A stretch of 31,780 nt of DNA from a virus (taxonomy: Duplodnaviria; Caudoviricetes): positions 1 through 31,780 of the IMG/VR virus record IMGVR_UViG_3300017777_000502; one strand, 5' to 3'. A program made the translations under genes and the position numbers. Below the pieces are notes generated by a model. That model was not told the DNA's origin and did not search any database. It saw only the letters and a program-made list of their open reading frames with translations. Positions 12,287-23,954 of this stretch are shown in pieces (the first letter of the stretch is position 1; each line of letters opens with the position of its first letter).

Positions 12287-12946
12287 TTAAAACAATTCTT
12301 GCTCAACTTGAATGCACAAATCTGGTCCATCGTCATACCGCTGCTGATCGCATTTGGGATACAACTTCAGCACTGGGTAATTCAGCTTTTCTTGCATCAT
12401 TCGGCGCTGTCGCTTGTCGCCAACAAACTGAAAATAACGGTGCTTGTCCATGGGCTTGACCATTTCAATGCCATTCTCTTTGGCCCATCGTGTTGGGTCT
12501 GTTATGCCTCTGTCCCTCAAAGTCATTGGATGCGTGCGCTTGCCATCAACGATATAGGCTTTGTCATGGCTCTTGGTGGCTCCCGTATACAGCCAGTTAG
12601 TGGCCTGATAAATGATGCCGCAATGGTTTTGCTCCATGTCGGCATAACTAATCACGGCGCATGGCTTTGGCTCCAACAACTTCAAGCTGTTGGCCACCAA
12701 AAAACTTGAAGCGTTTTTTGTCTTGGACTGCACCACCACACGGGCCAATTCATACAGCCTGAATTCCCTGTCCTTGAATGCGTGCTTTTGAATTGGCGGG
12801 GATGGCTGGCCATACACTGCAACACCTGTAATTTGGCCATCCTCCTCAAGCCCAAAGCCAGCCCAAAAAATAGAGGCTCTGCGGCTGTAGTGTTTGGTCA
12901 GAACAAATTGCTCTGCCACCTGTTTTGAAATTGGTATGACGTTCAT
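12287..12946 (-). CDS. mom: Mom-family adenine modification enzyme (GNAT fold)
   Basis: Motifs HYS, GVAVYGQP, ELAR, SFLVANSLK and VISYAD....HCGIIYQATNWLYTG are characteristic of phage Mu Mom homologues. Confidence 0.8.
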   Translation of the reverse strand: MNVIPISKQVAEQFVLTKHYSRRASIFWAGFGLEEDGQITGVAVYGQPSPPIQKHAFKDREFRLYELARVVVQSKTKNASSFLVANSLKLLEPKPCAVISYADMEQNHCGIIYQATNWLYTGATKSHDKAYIVDGKRTHPMTLRDRGITDPTRWAKENGIEMVKPMDKHRYFQFVGDKRQRRMMQEKLNYPVLKLYPKCDQQRYDDGPDLCIQVEQELF

Positions 12947-12957
12947 TTGCAGCACCT

Positions 12958-13143
12958 TTAAACGCTCTTGATTGCTTCTTTGCATTTGGCAAGCCACTCA
13001 GGTGCATAACCAGCATCAAAGTCCACATCGCCAGTCAGCAGCCAATACGCAGACGCTATGTCGTTTGTGCCAAATTCTTGAACACGGCTGCGGCCTTCAT
13101 AACCATTCCAGTTGCCCCAGATGTTTTGCTTTATTTTTCGCAT
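12958..13143 (-). CDS. Hypothetical protein, 61 aa
   Basis: Fills the gap in the leftward early chain; purine-rich RBS region. Confidence 0.65.
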   Translation of the reverse strand: MRKIKQNIWGNWNGYEGRSRVQEFGTNDIASAYWLLTGDVDFDAGYAPEWLAKCKEAIKSV

Positions 13144-14380: not shown

Positions 14381-15598
14381 ATGAACCTGTACCCGCATCA
14401 GGAAACTGCCAAACAGTTTCTGCTCACCCAAAAGAGGGCCATTCTGGCCGACCAGCCGCGAGTCGGCAAGACACTGCCAACAGCAGCCGCAGCCCTCGAA
14501 AACCTCCCCGCCTTGATCGTCTGCCCAGCCATTGCAAAAACGGTCTGGGAAGCCGCATTCTGCAAGCTGTCCAACGCCTCTGTGCGTGTTGTCAACGGTA
14601 AGAATGACGCCATGAAGACCACCAACCATCAGGTGGTCATCATCAACTACGACCTGCTGCAATACTTCAACAATGCGGGTTACCGCACGCTGGTGCTGGA
14701 TGAGTGCCATCGCATCAAGAACCCCTTGGCAAAACGCACCGCATCCGCATCCCTACTGATGAAGCAGATTGACCGTGTGTATGCCTTATCTGGCACGCCT
14801 ATCCCCAACAGGCCCGTAGAACTGTGGCCCATCTTGCACGGCCTGGGTATTTACCGTGGCGGCTGGTACGACTTTGCGGCCAGGTACGCCAAGATGTGGA
14901 AATCGCCATGGGGCTTAGATGTCTCAGGCTCCAGCAACATCCCCGAACTCAAGGCACTGATGAAGCCCCATGTGCTGCGGCGCAAAAAAGAGGATGTGTT
15001 CAAAGACTATCGTGATCCACAGGTGTCACTCATCACCTTTGATCTGCCCAATGACAAGCGTGAGCAGCAATTCGATGCTGATGCCTTGGCGGCCAACCCC
15101 AACGCCTTGCTGGCCTTTGAAGGCTTGGCAGAGATCATGAAAGAAGCGGGTATGCGCAAAGTCAATTTAGCAGCCGAATTCATTGATGACCTGCTGAACT
15201 CTGGTGAACCCGTGGTGGTCTTTGCGCACCACAAGGATGTGGTGGCCGAACTAGTCAAAGAACTCAAGGCCCACAAGCCTGTGACGGTGGTCGGCGACAC
15301 GCCAAGAGCGCAGCGCGACAAGGCCATTGAAGCCTTTCAAGCTGGCAAGACCAAATGCATCATCGGCAACATTGCGGCTATGAGCGAAGGTGTGGACCTG
15401 AGTGCAGCCGACACGATCGTCTTTGTCGAGTGCACTTGGTCAACGTCTGCACTGGAGCAGGCCAGCAGCCGGGTCGAGAACATCACCAAGAACGGCATCC
15501 AGCCCGTCATCTACATCTTGACCATCAGGGCATCCCTTGACCACACCGTGCTGGCCAAGGTGCTGAAGAAGTTGAATGTCGTTAACCAAATCATTTGA
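14381..15598 (+). CDS. SNF2-family (SF2) helicase
   Basis: [10 protein letters not shown] (Walker A), LVLDECH (Walker B), [15 protein letters not shown] and QASSR. GAGGA RBS before ATG 14381. Confidence 0.9.
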
Positions 15599-15606
15599 GG
15601 TCATAT

Positions 15607-16272
15607 ATGAAAGTAGAAATTGGAGACGCAACGCTGTACCTAGGCGACTGCATGGACATTTTGCCTACGCTGCAAAAGGTGGATGCGGTAATTACTGACC
15701 CGCCTTATGGTCTTGCTGAAAAATTGCAGGGCGGTACTTGGGGAAAAGCATTTGAAGGCGCTTACAAGGACTGGGATGCGGCGGCTCCCGTTGAGCTTGT
15801 TCAAGCGGCTTTACGGCTATCAGATAAAGCCATTGTTTGGGGTGGAAATTACTTTCAATTCCCGCCTTCACGATGCTGGCTGACATGGATTAAGCGGGAT
15901 GCCGTTCGAACAATGGCTGGATGCGAGCTTGCGTGGACAAACTTTGATGCAAACGCCAAGTTTTTTGATTGGACGATTGCCGCCACAAATGCAGAGCGTG
16001 TTGCACATCCGACACAAAAGCCGCTTGCCTTGATGAAGTGGTGCATCGATCAAGCTGGTAACCCTGAAACCATCCTAGACCCATTTATGGGCAGCGGGAC
16101 AACTGGCGTGGCTGCTGTGCAAATGGGCCGCAAGTTCATAGGCATTGAGCGCGAACAAAAATACTTTGAAATTGCTTGTCAACGAATTGAGAAAGCATAT
16201 GCGCAACAGTCTTTATTCGACAGGTCCAACGGCATAACCGCCAGCGACTTCAAACAGCAACCACTTATTTAA
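15607..16272 (+). CDS. DNA amino-methyltransferase (N4-C/N6-A, beta class)
   Basis: Motif IV TDPPY precedes HPTQKP and motif [11 protein letters not shown]; GIERE. Confidence 0.92.
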
Positions 16273-17388: not shown

Positions 17389-17436
17389 GTGTCAATTTTA
17401 CATCCAGCAACAGCCAGAGGCATCAACCATGGCTAA
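17389..17436 (+). CDS. Putative 15-aa leader peptide overlapping the primase start
   Basis: TTAGGAG SD five nt before GTG 17389; reads (M)SILHPATARGINHG. Its stop at 17434-36 lies just past ATG 17429. Confidence 0.35.
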   Translation: MSILHPATARGINHG

Positions 17437-19597
17437 GAAGACATTTGGATTCATTGCCCAAAACTTGGCCGATCTTGGCTACGAGCCAGTCCCCATAATC
17501 CGAGGCGAGAAACGGCCAGCCGTGGACAAGTGGCAGTCTGGTGGGTGGGAGGTGCACACCCAGCAGTTCGAAACCAACTACACCGGGCTGCTGACCCGAT
17601 TCAACCCCGGCGTGGACATTGATGTGTCAGACGAGGAACTGGTCCAAGCCATTCGCGCCATCGTCTTTGATGTCGCCGGGTGCCATGAGATGCCGCCACC
17701 CCGGCGCATTGGCAACGCGCCCCGAGAGTTGCTGCTGTTTCGCACTGAGGAAGAGTTCGCCAAGGTCAGCACCGCTGCCTACGTTCTCAAGACCGACAAG
17801 GCAGATGCCAATGGCAAGGTCAAAGGCTCCAAGGTCGAGATCCTTGCCAGTGGCCAGCAGTTTGTGGCCTACGCCATCCACCCCGACACCAAGCTGCCCT
17901 ACAACTGGAACGGTGGTGGTGAGCCGTTGGCCATGGAGCGCAGTAAGCTGGTGACGCTGGACGAGGCCCAGGCCAAGGAGATCGTGGCCAGGTGCGAGGT
18001 GCTGCTGTCGCTGCACGGGCAGCTTGTCGAGCGTAGATCCATCACCTCAGACTCAGGTGGAACGCTTGCGGACAGAATCCCGAACGAGCGCCAAGATGCC
18101 GATGACCCAATCCTGGCTCTATCCGCAGTTGGCGCCATGCCCAACCCCAACCTGCCGTTTGACGATTGGCTGCGCGTGCTGTACGCCACTAAGGGCGCAC
18201 TCAAGGAAGAAGGCCGCAACGCCTTTATGCGCTGGTCGGCCAAGTCCATCAAGCACGACCAAGCCTTTGCTGACAAGGAATGGCAAAAGGCCCGGCCCAC
18301 TATGCTGGGTGCTGGCTCACTCATATGGATGGCCAAGAAGTTGGGCTGGGCACCCGTGATGGCCATTCAGGTCGCGCAGCCTGTGGCCAACAGCGTGGTG
18401 GTGGACGAGGATGGCGAGGTGGCATCCCTTGTTTGGCCACACATGTCAGGCGGCAAAGCCCCCAAGCCGCTGAACACGCTGGAAAATTTTGCCGCCCTGT
18501 CCCGGTTTCTTGGCATCGAGTACCGAATGAACATGATGACGGGCGAGGAGGTGGTACGCATTCCCGGTATGCAAGTGGCCGAGGGGTCGGAGGCCAACAG
18601 CGCGGTCACCTACATGATGAGTCAGGCTCACCTGATGAGCCTGCCGTCTAGCTTGGTGCCAGAGTTCATGTCCATGATTTGCGCCCAGAACCCGTTTCAC
18701 CCCGCCCAGCAGTGGGTGGATTCCAAGCCTTGGGATGGCGTGAGCCGTTTGCAGGCATGGATGGACACCATCACAGCCGTGGACCAGCCACTGAAAGAGC
18801 AGATGATGCGCAGGTGGGCCATCAGCGCCATGGCCGCCCTGTATAAGCCGGGAGGTGTCAGCGCCCATGGCGTGCTGACCCTGCTGGGCGACCAAGGCAT
18901 TGGCAAGACCAGTTGGTTCTTGTCGTTGGTGCCTAGGGGTTTGGGCTTTGCCAAGGATGGGATGATCTTGCGGCCTGACAGCCCAGACAGCGTGCGCCAA
19001 GTCACCGCCAACTGGCTGGTCGAGCTTGGCGAGTTGGATGCCACCTTTCGCAAGTCGGACATTGCCGCCCTCAAAGCCTTCATCACCCAGGCCAGTGACA
19101 CCTACCGACTGCCCTACGCCAGAAAGAACACGGTCAACCCAAGACGGACGGTTTTCTTTGCCTCGGTCAATGACTCAAAGTTTTTGAGCGACAACACGGG
19201 CAACCGCAGGTACTGGACTATCGACTGCCTTGAGATTGACTACCGCCACCAGATCGACATGCAGCAGCTTTGGGCCGAGGTCAAGACGTTCTACCAAGCA
19301 GGCGAGGATTGGTATCTGGATGAGGCCGAGTTGGCCAGCCTGAACGAGTCGAACGAGCAGTTCATGACGCTGGACCCGATTGCCGAGAGGCTTGAGACTC
19401 GGCTGGATTGGGATGCGCCAAGCATTGATTGGCACTGGCGTACAGCCACCGAAATTGCCATGGCCATCGGGCTGACCAACCCGAGCAGGTCGGATGTGAC
19501 CCGCATTGCGTCCTATTTGCAAAAGAGTAAAGGGTGCAACCATAAGAGATCGCACGGCCTGACCAAGACCCTGGTTGCACCCTATGTGTTTGTCTGA
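17429..19597 (+). CDS. Primase-polymerase / PriCT-2 / VirE-family helicase fusion
   Basis: N-terminal bifunctional PrimPol motifs (PI..GEKRP, GVDIDV, HPDT..PY.W). PriCT-2 (FDDWLRV...FMRWSAKS.KH). C-terminal P-loop GDQGIGKT, VELGELD, RLPY and FLSDNTGNRRYW. Confidence 0.88.
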   Translation: MAKKTFGFIAQNLADLGYEPVPIIRGEKRPAVDKWQSGGWEVHTQQFETNYTGLLTRFNPGVDIDVSDEELVQAIRAIVFDVAGCHEMPPPRRIGNAPRELLLFRTEEEFAKVSTAAYVLKTDKADANGKVKGSKVEILASGQQFVAYAIHPDTKLPYNWNGGGEPLAMERSKLVTLDEAQAKEIVARCEVLLSLHGQLVERRSITSDSGGTLADRIPNERQDADDPILALSAVGAMPNPNLPFDDWLRVLYATKGALKEEGRNAFMRWSAKSIKHDQAFADKEWQKARPTMLGAGSLIWMAKKLGWAPVMAIQVAQPVANSVVVDEDGEVASLVWPHMSGGKAPKPLNTLENFAALSRFLGIEYRMNMMTGEEVVRIPGMQVAEGSEANSAVTYMMSQAHLMSLPSSLVPEFMSMICAQNPFHPAQQWVDSKPWDGVSRLQAWMDTITAVDQPLKEQMMRRWAISAMAALYKPGGVSAHGVLTLLGDQGIGKTSWFLSLVPRGLGFAKDGMILRPDSPDSVRQVTANWLVELGELDATFRKSDIAALKAFITQASDTYRLPYARKNTVNPRRTVFFASVNDSKFLSDNTGNRRYWTIDCLEIDYRHQIDMQQLWAEVKTFYQAGEDWYLDEAELASLNESNEQFMTLDPIAERLETRLDWDAPSIDWHWRTATEIAMAIGLTNPSRSDVTRIASYLQKSKGCNHKRSHGLTKTLVAPYVFV

Positions 19598-19795
19598 GGT
19601 TGCACCAAGTTGGCAGGTTGCACCGAGGTTGCACCTGCCGCAAACCCGCATGGTTATTAGCTTTGTGCAACCTGGTGCAACCTGGTGTAACTACTTTACT
19701 TAAAATGGATATTAGTGGAATATGGCAAATAAACACATAGAAAACGCAAATAGAAAGGTTAAGCAATTGGTTGCACCCGTTGCACCCGTTGCACC
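19533..19795. repeat. Iteron cluster (GGTTGCACC), putative phage replication origin
   Basis: Direct copies at 19573, 19598, 19616, 19627, 19769, 19778 and 19787. Inverted copies at 19533, about 19664, 19674 and 19684 (degenerate). An AT-rich tract lies at about 19690-19765. Confidence 0.8.
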
Positions 19796-20102
19796 CGATG
19801 ACTTTTTGGACGATGACCGGGTGACCTGCGACACCTGCCAACATCGAGGCGACCAGCCAGCCGATGAGTTTGTGGATTTGGACAAGGCAAGGCAACTCAG
19901 GACCATGGGCAAACGATTGGGTATGCCTGGCGACAAGTTTGAGCAAAAGGGCAACTGGCTCAGAATTTCATGGATTGAAGCCTGCTGCCATGCGACTGGC
20001 TTTTCGCCACAACCCAGCCAACTCAAGCATCGATGCCATTTGTATTCCAAGGCAACTGCACTGCCTTCATCGGTAGAATCCGATGCATGGTGGCTCGACT
20101 AA
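19722..20102 (+). CDS. Hypothetical Cys-containing protein (possible Zn binding)
   Basis: CDTC...CC...HRC. The N-terminal VAPVAPVAP is the translation of iterons. Confidence 0.6.
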   Translation: MANKHIENANRKVKQLVAPVAPVAPDDFLDDDRVTCDTCQHRGDQPADEFVDLDKARQLRTMGKRLGMPGDKFEQKGNWLRISWIEACCHATGFSPQPSQLKHRCHLYSKATALPSSVESDAWWLD

Positions 20103-20473
20103 GAAAAAGCATTGAACACACTGAACAGGTCAAACTGGTGCAGCGGGTCAGAGCCTTCTACCCTGATGTCATCATTGCTGCCATACCGAATGGGGGCAAC
20201 AGAACGGCCTCAGAGCGTGTCAGACTGCATCAGGAGGGGGTACTTGCTGGAATGCCTGATCTGTGCGTCCTTGAGGCATCTGGTGGTCACCATGGGCTGT
20301 TTGTTGAGATGAAGACAGCAACAGGGCAACAGAGCAAAGAGCAGAAGGCTTTGCAGTTGCAATTAAACAACAATGGGTATCTGTGCGCTGTCGCACGTTC
20401 AGCCCAAGAGGGTTTTGAAATTATTGAGGAGTATTTGAATGGCGAAAGCAAACACGCTGGCCGAGTGGGCTGA
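20087..20473 (+). CDS. VRR-NUC endonuclease
   Basis: EHTEQ, IPNGG.R, EGVLAGMPDL, LFVEMKT..G..S.EQ. Confidence 0.88.
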   Translation: MVARLRKSIEHTEQVKLVQRVRAFYPDVIIAAIPNGGNRTASERVRLHQEGVLAGMPDLCVLEASGGHHGLFVEMKTATGQQSKEQKALQLQLNNNGYLCAVARSAQEGFEIIEEYLNGESKHAGRVG

Positions 20474-20939
20474 CAACATTGTTGAAAGGCAGATTACCCT
20501 CAAAGACAAGGCAGCCATCGCACGCAAGGAAGCCTCAGACGTCAACAAGAAGATCCACCAGTTCGGTGGCGAGGTTGCCATTGTTGACAGACTGTCCCAA
20601 GGGGAAACCGTTTTGGGTGTGGCAAGGACGCTGGGTATAAGTCACACCGCTTTTTACGATTGGGTGGATAGAGGGGGCGAGGCACGCACTGCCGCTCTTG
20701 CGCGTGCACGCACGCGAGGTGGTCAGAGTTTAGCCGAGCAAACGCTGGAGATCGCCGACAGCGCGACCCCGCAAGAGGCGCAGGTGGCCAAGCTGCGGGT
20801 CGATACAAGGCGCTGGCTGGCCAGCAAGATGAACGAGGAATACAGCGACAAGCAGCAGCCTTTGGTCAACATCGATCTGGGCAGCATGGCACTCGATGCG
20901 CTGCGCAAGCGCAGCGTGGATATGCATACCGATAACTGA
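20439..20939 (+). CDS. terS: Terminase small subunit
   Basis: HTH (GETVLGVARTLGISHTAFYDW), then EIAD...VAKLRVDTRRWLASKM, the Sf6-like TerS pattern. Confidence 0.82.
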   Translation: MAKANTLAEWADNIVERQITLKDKAAIARKEASDVNKKIHQFGGEVAIVDRLSQGETVLGVARTLGISHTAFYDWVDRGGEARTAALARARTRGGQSLAEQTLEIADSATPQEAQVAKLRVDTRRWLASKMNEEYSDKQQPLVNIDLGSMALDALRKRSVDMHTDN

Positions 20940-20943
20940 CGGT

Positions 20944-20971
20944 ACTTCGCACAACGTCCATTATGTTAAGT
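20944..20971 (+). other. dif-like XerC/XerD recombination site
   Basis: ACTTCGCACAA-CGTCCA-TTATGTTAAGT has the 11-6-11 layout. The right arm matches the XerD arm TTATGTTAAAT at 10/11 and the left arm matches the E. coli XerC arm GGTGCGCATAA at 7/11. Confidence 0.8.
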
Positions 20972-20981
20972 CGATACAGAG

Positions 20982-21070
20982 TTATCCACAGATTAATGGA
21001 TACGTTTGGTTTAACTTGCAAGTTATCCACAGGAATCTGTGGATAACTGTGGACAAACCCCTGTGGACAA
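20982..21070. promoter_or_regulatory. Cluster of five DnaA boxes
   Basis: TTATCCACA at 20982-90 and 21023-31; TGTGGATAA at 21038-46; TGTGGACAA (1 mismatch) at 21048-56 and 21062-70. Confidence 0.88.
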
Positions 21071-21232
21071 GCCGATGCCGCGCCAGCCTGGGGCCGTGGC
21101 CGCGACCCCCCCGGTGGCCGCCTTGGCGGGGGCGGCTGCTGCGGTACCCCACACCCATCCCTGACAACCCTGAAAAATTTTTTTTAAGTTTGTCAAAAAT
21201 GTAACCAAGGGCACTTAAAGCAAATAAAGCAC

Positions 21233-21262
21233 TTGCACACCCTGATGAACTTGCCTTAAACT
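21233..21262 (+). promoter_or_regulatory. Possible sigma70-like promoter
   Basis: TTGCAC-N18-TAAACT, upstream of an AAGGAG RBS and ATG 21291. Confidence 0.45.
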
Positions 21263-21290
21263 GCAATTCCCTATAAACAAGGAGACACTG

Positions 21291-21455
21291 ATGGACACGA
21301 CATTTCTCAAAAGGGTACGCACGCTGTATCCGCAAAGCCGCCATCTGCAAAGGCAGTGGATCAAGAGCATTCGGCATCTGGGTGCTAAGTGGCTGATCTG
21401 TCAGCCGCAGCCACAGGACAAGCTGCGTGAGCAGGCGGCGGGGCGGTGGGCATGA
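21291..21455 (+). CDS. Hypothetical protein, 54 aa (not in ORF track)
   Basis: MDTTFLKRVRTLYPQSRHLQRQWIKSIRHLGAKWLICQPQPQDKLREQAAGRWA; AAGGAG RBS and ATGA overlap. Confidence 0.75.
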   Translation: MDTTFLKRVRTLYPQSRHLQRQWIKSIRHLGAKWLICQPQPQDKLREQAAGRWA

Positions 21456-21655
21456 ACTGCTGCGATGCAAACGGCAATTGCCGACAGGGCCGTGATTGCC
21501 CTGTGAGGGGGTATTGGAAGAATCCACCAGAGACAAAACTCAGCGTCATTGCTGAAGACGAGCAGCCAACCCCAGCCGATGGGCAACTGGTCTGGGTGGT
21601 GGTGGCGTTTATCACCCTGATGCTGGGCCTGTTGACTTTGAGGAGTTGTTTATGA
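21452..21655 (+). CDS. Small membrane protein with N-terminal Cys cluster
   Basis: MNCCDANGNCRQGRDCPVR followed by a C-terminal TM; ATGA overlaps at both ends. Confidence 0.7.
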   Translation: MNCCDANGNCRQGRDCPVRGYWKNPPETKLSVIAEDEQPTPADGQLVWVVVAFITLMLGLLTLRSCL

Positions 21656-22314
21656 CACCGAACACAATCCAATTCAGCGGTACAGACAGCACATGGGTGA
21701 TGCGTATTACCGCAGATCGCCGCATTGAAGTTAACGAAGACGTTGAGGTTACTGAAGCAGCACAGAAAGTTCTGGATGCCTTGCAGCATTTGTTAAAAAT
21801 AGAACCTGTGCAGGAGCCTGTGGCGACAGTCACAAGCGAATCAGGAAATCCAGATGTAGCGATGTCATGGTGGCATGAACCGCCATTGCCTGTTGGCACA
21901 AAGCTCTACACCACCCCACCCGCAGCACAGCCAGCACCTGTCAAGGTTTGGGAAGCCGAAGGCTATGACGCGCTGATGAAAGAGATGCAGATGGTCAAGG
22001 CCAGAAACATTCGGCAGCACGCTGAGATTGAGCGACTGAAGGCAGCACCTGTGCAGCCTGTGAAGGGATGCCAGCACAAGCGGTATTCAGTCGATGCGCG
22101 TGAAGGGACGGGCACATGCCACGATTGTGGTGCAGAAGGCCAAATGCAATTTGTCGTCGGTGATACTTCCTCGGTTGCCACCCCACCCGCATCACAGCGG
22201 CAATGGGTTGGTCTGACGGATGAGGAGCGCACAGAAATTAGGCGAGAACATTACGCACGAACACTTCCACTTATGGATGCCATCGAAGCCAAACTTCGCG
22301 AGAAAAACATATGA
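21652..22314 (+). CDS. Mosaic hypothetical phage protein
   Basis: GAGGAG RBS. Modules are joined by linkers (QEPVA, LYTTPPAAQ, QWVGLTDEE, AIEAKLREKN) typical of variable phage accessory genes. Confidence 0.7.
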   Translation: MTPNTIQFSGTDSTWVMRITADRRIEVNEDVEVTEAAQKVLDALQHLLKIEPVQEPVATVTSESGNPDVAMSWWHEPPLPVGTKLYTTPPAAQPAPVKVWEAEGYDALMKEMQMVKARNIRQHAEIERLKAAPVQPVKGCQHKRYSVDAREGTGTCHDCGAEGQMQFVVGDTSSVATPPASQRQWVGLTDEERTEIRREHYARTLPLMDAIEAKLREKNI

Positions 22315-22535
22315 CCCCGAAACAAGAACTGGCTTTGCGGGAATACTTGCAAGAATCCATCTTGCCGCTGATTGAAGATGTGCTGACCAAGAAACTGGGG
22401 CAAGCCATGACGTTTGCGAAAGAAGAACTTGCACAGCCAAAGCCAGCAGTCCCTGATGCCATCACCGACAACAGCGAAACCCCCGAGTACATCCAAGGCT
22501 GGAACGACTGCCGACAGGCGATGCTGGCCGCATAA
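22311..22535 (+). CDS. Hypothetical protein
   Basis: ATGA overlap; C-terminal YIQGWNDCRQAML motif common in phage accessory proteins. Confidence 0.7.
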   Translation: MTPKQELALREYLQESILPLIEDVLTKKLGQAMTFAKEELAQPKPAVPDAITDNSETPEYIQGWNDCRQAMLAA

Positions 22536-22544
22536 TTGACGCAT

Positions 22545-23954
22545 ATGGCAAAAGAAAATGTGTTTCAGCAGTGGGTGGAGAGGTATCAGCCTGACCCGGT
22601 GCTGTTTGTGCGGGAGGTGCTGGGGGTAGATCCGGACCCGTGGCAGGTGAAGTTTCTCCAGGCGATTGCCCGTGGGGACAGGAAGATATCAGTGCGCAGC
22701 GGCCACGGGGTGGGGAAATCTACGGCATCAAGCTGGGCCATGCTGTGGTACTTTATGACCAGATCACCCGTGAAGGTGGTGGTGACCGCGCCGACCAGCA
22801 GCCAGCTTTATGACGCGATGTTTGCGGAACTGAAGCGGTGGATCAATGCGATGCCTGCCCCATTGCAGGGGTTGCTGACTGTGAAGCAAGAGCGCATTGA
22901 GTTCAACGCAGCGCCGACTGAGATGTTCATCTCAGCCAGGACATCACGGGCCGAGCAGCCCGAGGCTTTGCAGGGCATTCACTCTGAGTATGTGATGCTG
23001 GTGGCCGATGAGGCCAGCGGTGTGCCAGAGCAGGTGTTCGAGGCGGCGGCGGGCAGTATGTCGGGCCACAACGCTGTGACGCTGCTGCTGGGCAACCCGG
23101 TGAGGTCATCAGGGTTCTTCTATGACACCCACACCCGGCTGGCTGGGGAGTGGACCACGTTTCAGGTGGCGTGTACCGACTCGCCAAGAGTCAGTGACGA
23201 GTATGTGAAGGAGATGGCGCAGCGGTACGGTGAGGACAGCAACGTCTACCGCATTCGCGTGATTGGGGAATTCCCCAAGGGTGATGACGACACCATCATT
23301 GGCATGGACCTGCTGGAAAGTGCGGTGCATCGGGATGTGGCCCCGAGCCAGTCGGCACCCATGGTGTGGGGGTTGGATGTGGCGCGGTTTGGCAGTGACA
23401 GGTCGGCGCTGTGCAAGCGCCAAGGCAACGTGATGACCGAGGCCATCAGGACTTGGAAGAATCTGGACCTGATGCAACTGACGGGTGCTGTGGTGGCTGA
23501 GTACAACGTGCTGCCGTCAAGCCAGCAGCCCAAAGAGATTTTGGTGGACAGCATCGGTCTTGGGGCTGGGGTGGTGGACAGGCTTAGAGAGCTTGGCCTG
23601 CCAGCTAGGGGCATCAATGTGTCCGAAAGCCCAGCCATGGGCGGCACCTATCGCAACCTGAAAGCTGAACTTTGGTACAGGGCCAAGGCGTGGCTGGAGG
23701 CGAGAGACTGCAAGCTGGCCAAGGACGAGGTGCTGATTTCCGAATTGGCCACGGTGCGGTACACCTTCACCAGTAATGGGAAAATTGCCATTGAAGGCAA
23801 AGACGAGATCAGGAAGAGGGGATTGCCCAGCCCTGACAAGGCTGATGCTTTTGTCTTGACGTTTGCAAGCGATGCGATTGCCGGGATGTACGGGTCAGCA
23901 GGCAGCAACAAGTGGAGCCAGCCGCTGCGCCGAAACCTGTCGAGGGTTGCATAA
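22545..23954 (+). CDS. terL: Terminase large subunit
   Basis: Walker A RSGHGVGKS, Walker B LVADEASG, motif III LGNP, and nuclease residues GLDVARFGSD, VDSIG and SPDKADA. Confidence 0.95.
   Translation: MAKENVFQQWVERYQPDPVLFVREVLGVDPDPWQVKFLQAIARGDRKISVRSGHGVGKSTASSWAMLWYFMTRSPVKVVVTAPTSSQLYDAMFAELKRWINAMPAPLQGLLTVKQERIEFNAAPTEMFISARTSRAEQPEALQGIHSEYVMLVADEASGVPEQVFEAAAGSMSGHNAVTLLLGNPVRSSGFFYDTHTRLAGEWTTFQVACTDSPRVSDEYVKEMAQRYGEDSNVYRIRVIGEFPKGDDDTIIGMDLLESAVHRDVAPSQSAPMVWGLDVARFGSDRSALCKRQGNVMTEAIRTWKNLDLMQLTGAVVAEYNVLPSSQQPKEILVDSIGLGAGVVDRLRELGLPARGINVSESPAMGGTYRNLKAELWYRAKAWLEARDCKLAKDEVLISELATVRYTFTSNGKIAIEGKDEIRKRGLPSPDKADAFVLTFASDAIAGMYGSAGSNKWSQPLRRNLSRVA

Follow-up and report, generated by a model that had tools for sequence, protein, structure and literature searches.

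The virus record IMGVR_UViG_3300017777_000502 (Duplodnaviria; Caudoviricetes), analyzed here over positions 1 to 31,780, the whole of which we call the window, carries directly downstream of the gene for the terminase small subunit (terS, 20439..20939, plus strand) a cluster of five DnaA boxes, the first of which begins exactly 10 bp past a 28-bp site resembling the dif sites of the XerC/XerD recombination system. Sequence comparisons suggest that this module is likely to be an accessory-controlled Xer site of a variant form, with DnaA boxes as its accessory DNA. We propose, with a confidence that we would place near the halfway mark, that the boxes are the accessory arm of the dif-like site, at which host DnaA would gate recombination by host XerC and XerD. 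A preliminary description of this DNA had noticed the boxes, taking them for either a second replication origin or a sponge for DnaA, and had omitted the dif-like site that adjoins them at 20944-20971.

A dif-like site with DnaA boxes in fixed phase

The dif-like site (plus strand) has the 11-6-11 organization of an XerC-type arm (ACTTCGCACAA, 20944..20954), a 6-bp spacer (CGTCCA, 20955..20960) and an XerD-type arm (TTATGTTAAGT, 20961..20971). The XerD-type arm agrees with that of Escherichia coli dif at 10 of 11 positions and with that of a chromosomal site (L672 in genome G026) at all 11, and the XerC-type arm agrees with the same two sites at 7 and 10 of 11 positions respectively and resembles the pdif arms given in Table 1 of PMC13141974. 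The pattern that describes the site recovers E. coli dif as a positive control and matches 97 of 201 genomes sampled from a single bacterial class as against one for the reversed control (a tally that includes the unpublished genomes G047 and G149, and becomes 95 of 199 without both); it behaves as a dif detector. It has a single match in the window, where 0.06 would be expected by chance. Among relatives identified by terS, positions 20959-20970, which are not a DnaA box, form the most invariant motif of the region (99% conserved), and the spacer varies. As far as sequence can tell, 20944-20971 fits the XerCD dif/pdif layout of a conserved XerD arm and a variable spacer.

The box cluster begins 42 bp past the terS stop codon. 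Boxes 1 (20982..20990) and 2 (21023..21031, at +51 from the XerD arm) are perfect matches to TTWTNCACA on the plus strand. Box 3 (21038..21046, at +66) is a perfect match in the opposite orientation, followed on the same minus strand by two TTGTCCACA-type boxes with one mismatch each, namely box 4 (21048..21056, at +76), which is kept in 10 of 71 close relatives, and box 5 (21062..21070, at +90); the relatives often have a distal reverse box between +88 and +100. The earlier count of three perfect and two one-mismatch boxes in 89 bp holds at every coordinate. The motif is not enriched over the genome at large (4 occurrences against 3.1 expected, and 49 against 56 with one mismatch); it is the cluster itself that is unusual, five boxes within 100 bp being seen in 1 of 1000 dinucleotide shuffles and three perfect boxes within 100 bp likewise in 1 of 1000.

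The relatives gathered by terS comprise 80 loci, 79 of them with room downstream and 71 distinct, and all 79 have at least three boxes after terS. Over 213 copies of boxes 1-3 variation is concentrated at position 5 (C153/G59/T1) and position 1 (T179/A23/C11), no other position showing more than one change; because position 5 is the varying base, the boxes match the TTWTNCACA consensus with its free N. Furthermore, box 1 with its flanks is identical at 16 of 16 bases to a stretch of E. coli oriC, which we take to be the R4 box. The boxes are likely to be true DnaA sites. Neither a DnaA domain IV nor a tyrosine recombinase or phage integrase was found in the window or in five complete relatives, so that the proteins reading both parts of the module are likely to be those of the host, in keeping with the earlier choice of host DnaA as the reader of the boxes.

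A scan for XerD arms followed by a box at a distance of 5-30 bp returned about 620 viral stretches; in 120 of these loci the gap is 10 bp in 102, 22 bp in 13 and of another length in 5, and the module is inverted relative to terS in 34. Because such a scan selects for boxes, the test was redone on loci chosen by terS, which fall into three clades with TerS proteins 25-34% identical (193 loci, reduced to 160 when 4 that were too short and 29 duplicates were dropped). The XerD arm is present in all 160 of these distinct loci. The first forward box stands at +10 in 155 of them (71/71, 60/64 and 24/25 by clade) and a reverse box stands at +65/66, again in 155 (71/71, 62/64 and 22/25); the XerD side has 2-5 boxes and the XerC side mostly none or one. 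Judged by its sequence, the module has accessory-type DNA adjacent to the core site at a conserved phase, which is the arrangement looked for in cer- and psi-type sites.

Two finer features of the preliminary description are real in the window and poorly kept outside it. The 12-bp inverted repeat formed by boxes 2 and 3 is present at 21021-21032/21037-21048; box 2 is found in 71/71 and 23/25 loci of two clades and in only 6/64 of the third (clade II), and as it is clade-specific the inverted repeat does not belong to the core, which boxes 1 and 3 do. The overlapping palindrome AACTTGCAAGTT (21013-21024) has been retained by no more than 2 of 71 distinct relatives.

The fixed gap could also be explained as promoter geometry, with box 1 overlapping a -35-like hexamer and the XerD arm holding a -10-like CATAAT 17 bp away, in which case DnaA would control a promoter and the dif site would work independently. 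This is the only promoter-like match in 19400-21500 and it is the +10 gap that gives the 17-bp spacing of this weak promoter, which counts against our interpretation of the gap; other phages also have DnaA box pairs near terminase genes where no dif is present. However, one match equals the expectation from shuffled sequence (mean 0.9), the promoter would direct transcription antisense into terS in two clades and, in the inverted ones, towards the terminase large subunit gene (terL), the 22-bp gap variant breaks the spacing, and the reverse box at +65/66 is left unexplained. We regard a DnaA-controlled promoter as unlikely.

Joint inversion of the site and the boxes

In clade II the dif-like site and the boxes share an inverted orientation with respect to terS, the genome-end signal described below and the A/T tract in 64 of 64 loci, with the distal boxes overlapping the 3' end of terS, and the C-run/G-run element of the end signal, the A-tract and terL retain their direction. 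Since the site and the boxes invert jointly, and neither the end signal nor the A/T tract inverts with them, the array belongs with the Xer site rather than with a second origin. Among 120 metagenome loci 59 have the orientation of the window, 28 are inverted, 2 match by terL only and 31 have no match. Nine loci with no match, comprising 7 of those 31 and 2 from the scan of about 620 stretches, were annotated, and represent a fourth lineage in which the module lies between the primase gene and terL with its geometry unchanged. The genome MW202879 (TerL 75% and TerS 53% identical), which is the sole match at E below 0.01 in a blastn comparison of the module with cultured phages, keeps the end element and the A-tract and lacks both the dif-like site, throughout its genome, and the boxes after terS. 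In the same genome an annotated serine resolvase directly follows the end element (L201:966-1840).

These results bear on the preliminary suggestion of a second DnaA-dependent origin, which might be used on the freshly circularized genome. The window does contain, as had been noted, a primase-helicase gene (PriCT-2 and VapE domains; 17429-19597) followed by a repeat array (19534-19794, unstranded), which is likely to be an iteron origin and holds 10 of the window's 15 GTTGCAC copies. The array has no perfect DnaA box in the window phage; 64 of 75 close relatives have at least two at their post-primase array, which suggests that DnaA is used by the family, and the three high-affinity-type boxes of the cluster would also suit an origin. 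The A/T tract reported at 21172-21204 (plus strand) is indeed A/T at 28 of 33 positions, but it moves together with the end element and the promoter-like site that follows, parting from the boxes on inversion and persisting where they are lost. Moreover, no 13-mer, GATC or trio, each taken in its generally known form, lies near the boxes, the GC skew does not change sign there, and the same module occurs whether or not a phage has boxes at its repeat origin. A second origin is not supported, and we consider it quite unlikely.

The other preliminary suggestion was a sponge that titrates DnaA, and more broadly the array might be a datA-like sponge or a nucleotide switch like the DnaA-reactivating sequences (DARS), shutting down or resetting host initiation. 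Extra copies of datA impair initiation, according to the portion of PMC5742627 concerned with them; boxes 2 and 3 match the E. coli bioD-uvrB (DARS1) region in blastn (93% over 29 nt); and head-to-head pairs of DnaA boxes are enriched in viral contigs (about 260 stretches, as against 7 for a permuted control), roughly half of 120 such loci sampled belonging to the phage family of the window. DARS elements are described in the relevant part of PMC6868365 as having boxes I-III, spaced by 5 and 3 bp, with I opposite to II and III. The window resembles DARS1 and DARS2 in having a head-to-head pair followed by further same-strand boxes, besides the 29-nt likeness to the DARS1 region, but its spacing of 6 and 1 bp does not agree with that of DARS, and the pair is not the conserved core of the phage array, box 2 being missing in 58 of 64 clade II loci. 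Like E. coli datA and the DnaA-box clusters of Bacillus, as outlined in PMC5742627, the array is a non-coding cluster away from the origin. Unlike these it has no clear site for the integration host factor (IHF), only one-mismatch matches to the usual IHF consensus being found between the boxes and none of these being conserved across clades, it belongs to a phage, and it stands in a fixed phase to an Xer site, which a sponge would not need. Titration of DnaA is plausible as a side effect, but it leaves the exact 10-bp phase and the joint inversion with the Xer site unexplained, and as the primary function of the array a sponge or nucleotide switch is decidedly unlikely.

Predicted genome end and proposed mechanism

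The module is followed by a C-run/G-run element (21099..21135, unstranded), an apparent packaging-end mark that occurs with an A-tract in 79 of 79 relatives. In phiM5, the closest cultured TerL relative with annotated ends (52.6%), the direct terminal repeat is 357 bp long according to the GenBank record, and the right end falls 13 nt past a similar G-run and 21 nt before the A-tract. By analogy to phiM5 we predict the right end of the window genome at about 21144-21150 (unstranded), which would place the module about 175 bp inside it, over a span of 75-200 bp. A rise in contig depth at 20793-21057 in 2 of 4 runs was not counted as evidence of an end, because depths summed over contigs do not measure copy number and different strains have the stretch in common.

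A location right after terS, whose product bears a helix-turn-helix (HTH), and beside the predicted end would also be expected if the boxes were recognition sites for the terminase subunit TerS with no more than a resemblance to DnaA boxes. However, an identical 9-mer accompanies TerS proteins that are only 25-34% identical, the array flips relative to the end signal, MW202879 lacks the array with a TerS 53% identical, and the same boxes occur at repeat origins, making this alternative very unlikely.

In support of the general idea of such a placement, the terminal repeat of the cultured rV5-like phage HdK5 (Vequintavirus), 459 bp long, contains a dif-like site in each of its two copies. The module of the window, if its end is correctly placed, would be comparable as an Xer site in the terminal repeat of a lytic phage, with the difference that the HdK5 repeat contains no perfect DnaA box. 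No convincing dif-like site was found in the cultured phages with 30% TerL identity (Ab31, Carin1 and the first 2.6 kb of Vibrio phage 1.185.O), and none in three closer TerL relatives, phiM5, MW202711 and MW202496. A further closer relative, C72C1, has a dif-like site after terS, reversed and without boxes.

The spacers point to self-resolution rather than integration. There are 22 kinds of spacer in 114 distinct loci, and TGTATA, the commonest chromosomal spacer, is found in none of these and in none of the 120 metagenome loci. No integrated copy was detected among 84 genome matches (GTDB) and the 120 metagenome loci, which are samples only; the 84 matches are scattered by gap length and taxon, and none has the phage layout. 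Self-resolution is favored because the spacers vary, are never of the host type, and no integrated copies were found. The converse possibility, that the phage integrates at host dif with the dif-like site as its attachment site, as in integrative mobile elements exploiting Xer (IMEX), with the boxes aiding, gains from the near identity of its arms to the real chromosomal site L672 and from the failure to find a phage integrase, but the freely varying spacers and the lack of integrated copies in the same samples render it extremely unlikely. On the chromosomal side, an XerD arm is followed at 5-30 bp by a perfect box in 5 of 401 genomes of one class (including the unpublished G047 and G149, neither of which matches) and never at +10, and none of 29 chromosomal sites has three or more boxes; as the chromosomal dif sites are without the array, it does not look copied from hosts of the sampled class.

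We propose that the module might work as follows. Lying inside the terminal repeat, it would be present at each end of the virion DNA as a direct repeat. Host XerCD would join the two copies, thereby circularizing the incoming DNA and resolving early dimers to monomer circles. DnaA bound at the phased boxes would shape or activate the synapse in place of PepA/ArgR or FtsK, with one DnaA a helical turn from XerD and a second, facing it, about five turns further. As the phage is proposed to package from concatemers, recombination would later have to stop; most speculatively, rising genome copies would deplete free DnaA, whereupon recombination would cease and concatemers would build up for packaging. 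Titration may in this manner be part of a DnaA switch. The full proposition, a large group of freshwater podophages in which DnaA is the accessory factor of a terminal-repeat XerCD site and provides a protein-free copy-number switch from monomer circles to concatemers, is possible but doubtful. If true, it would be a copy-number switch built from two host housekeeping systems and a first case of DnaA controlling site-specific recombination, a new job for DnaA that might include an FtsK-independent route to XerD activation. Little is known of circularization and the switch to concatemers in small lytic phages whose terminal repeats are short and which have no recombinase, and the module is a concrete candidate answer. 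A full-text search, outside which most subscription papers fall, returned no report of DnaA boxes as Xer accessory sites and none of dif sites in tailed-phage terminal repeats.

In phage P1 site-specific joining of redundant ends after infection is carried out by Cre at loxP; the joining proposed here is alike, except that host XerCD would perform it, no phage recombinase having been found. At cer and psi the accessory DNA is on the XerC side. In the phage module the boxes are on the XerD side, in a tailed phage and at a packaging end, and the accessory motifs are DnaA boxes, not PepA, ArgR or ArcA sites, for which no motif search was made. What the module shares with cer of ColE1 and psi of pSC101, as these are treated in PMC5357621, is a core XerC/XerD site beside accessory DNA, protein-binding there and predicted to be so here, in an extrachromosomal setting. 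That paper states that accessory proteins on the neighboring DNA are required at cer and psi and that chromosomal dif needs FtsK guided by FtsK-orienting polar sequences (KOPS; PMC5357621). FtsK guidance is not evident in the phage, because only one KOPS motif is found in 31,780 bp, with none within 9 kb of the dif-like site. The Acinetobacter pdif sites, in the account excerpted from PMC13141974, have an 11-6-11 layout, a conserved XerD arm and a variable spacer, and recombine between like spacers; the phage site has the same layout, arm conservation and spacer variability, and blastn with it retrieved 191 Acinetobacter plasmid records. It differs in being single in each genome, without paired dif modules, and in having a DnaA array attached.

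Certain observations weigh against the boxes being the accessory arm of an Xer site. The independent evidence amounts to about four lineages and at least one inversion, the loci being kin within clades, and the co-loss of site and boxes rests on one genome, MW202879. The XerC arm is degenerate in many relatives. phiM5, from which the genome end was predicted, has itself no dif-like site, and the open reading frame (ORF) in its repeat has no BLAST match to the window terS. At least two boxes lie near 3 of 120 viral dif-like sites, compared with a background of 3 in 312, and DnaA is not generally needed at such sites because most of them, that of HdK5 included, are without boxes. Conversely, 6 of 43 flanked head-to-head pair loci with no terS close by are members of the wider family, and among the remaining 37 unrelated loci 12 adjoin terminase genes and none has a dif within 400 bp, so that boxes near packaging sites can have a role free of dif. 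Finally, DnaA could instead block the dif-like site.

Gene neighborhood and related viral loci

The virus record has a completeness of 89% and includes SU10-type portal, capsid and adaptor genes; the source runs holding the window are nearly all freshwater or viral metagenomes. The product of terS matches phrog_1482 (E 5.8e-19) and PF20901, and terL (22536..23954, plus strand) matches phrog_2 (E 1.9e-46), its product being 52.6% identical to the phiM5 TerL. Small ORFs occupy 21291-22535 between the end signal and terL, a gap whose length in relatives is between about 0.6 and 2.9 kb and which constitutes a variable gene slot behind a promoter-like site. Elsewhere the window contains a Mom-like DNA modification gene and a DNA methyltransferase gene (12287-12997 and 15595-16272).

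At the post-primase repeat array, the 64 of 75 relatives with boxes have 2-3 perfect ones, 1100-1400 bp before the terS stop codon, with differing repeat units (for example L004, L011, L014, L029 and L048). A tandem pair 11 bp apart appears to fall within the start of the next ORF; the window phage and 10 other loci have no DnaA boxes there. This suggests that replication modules with and without DnaA help are exchangeable.

The dif-like pattern occurs in about 1700 viral stretches, often beside terminase genes. Among 62 canonical sites, drawn from 80 flanked loci of 120 viral dif-like matches, terS or terL is a nearest ORF in 21 (L339-L418); these terminase genes are mostly phrog_1482 terS with phrog_2 terL, usually without DnaA boxes. 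Together with the freely varying spacers, the terminase neighbors raise the possibility that tailed phages make general use of host Xer in a way not described before. A dif-like site on a viral contig of 155 kb is accompanied by five perfect DnaA boxes within 200 bp (L408:80-500).

Head-to-head DnaA box pairs also lie beside unrelated terminase genes, with no dif near, at L083, L091, L100, L104, L125, L133 and L158. Long ORF-poor phage regions at L081, L098, L108, L112, L116, L154 and L156 contain 2-11 DnaA boxes, and a GACACGCCCG motif recurs in some of them. In a microvirus-like contig a head-to-head pair lies within the start of the ORF that follows the capsid gene (L110:2980-3030), and in the Streptomyces phage TunaTartare a pair and a third box open a gene-free region of 1 kb (L208:7004-7280). 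Non-coding matches are also present in the Lactococcus phages 949 and P1048.
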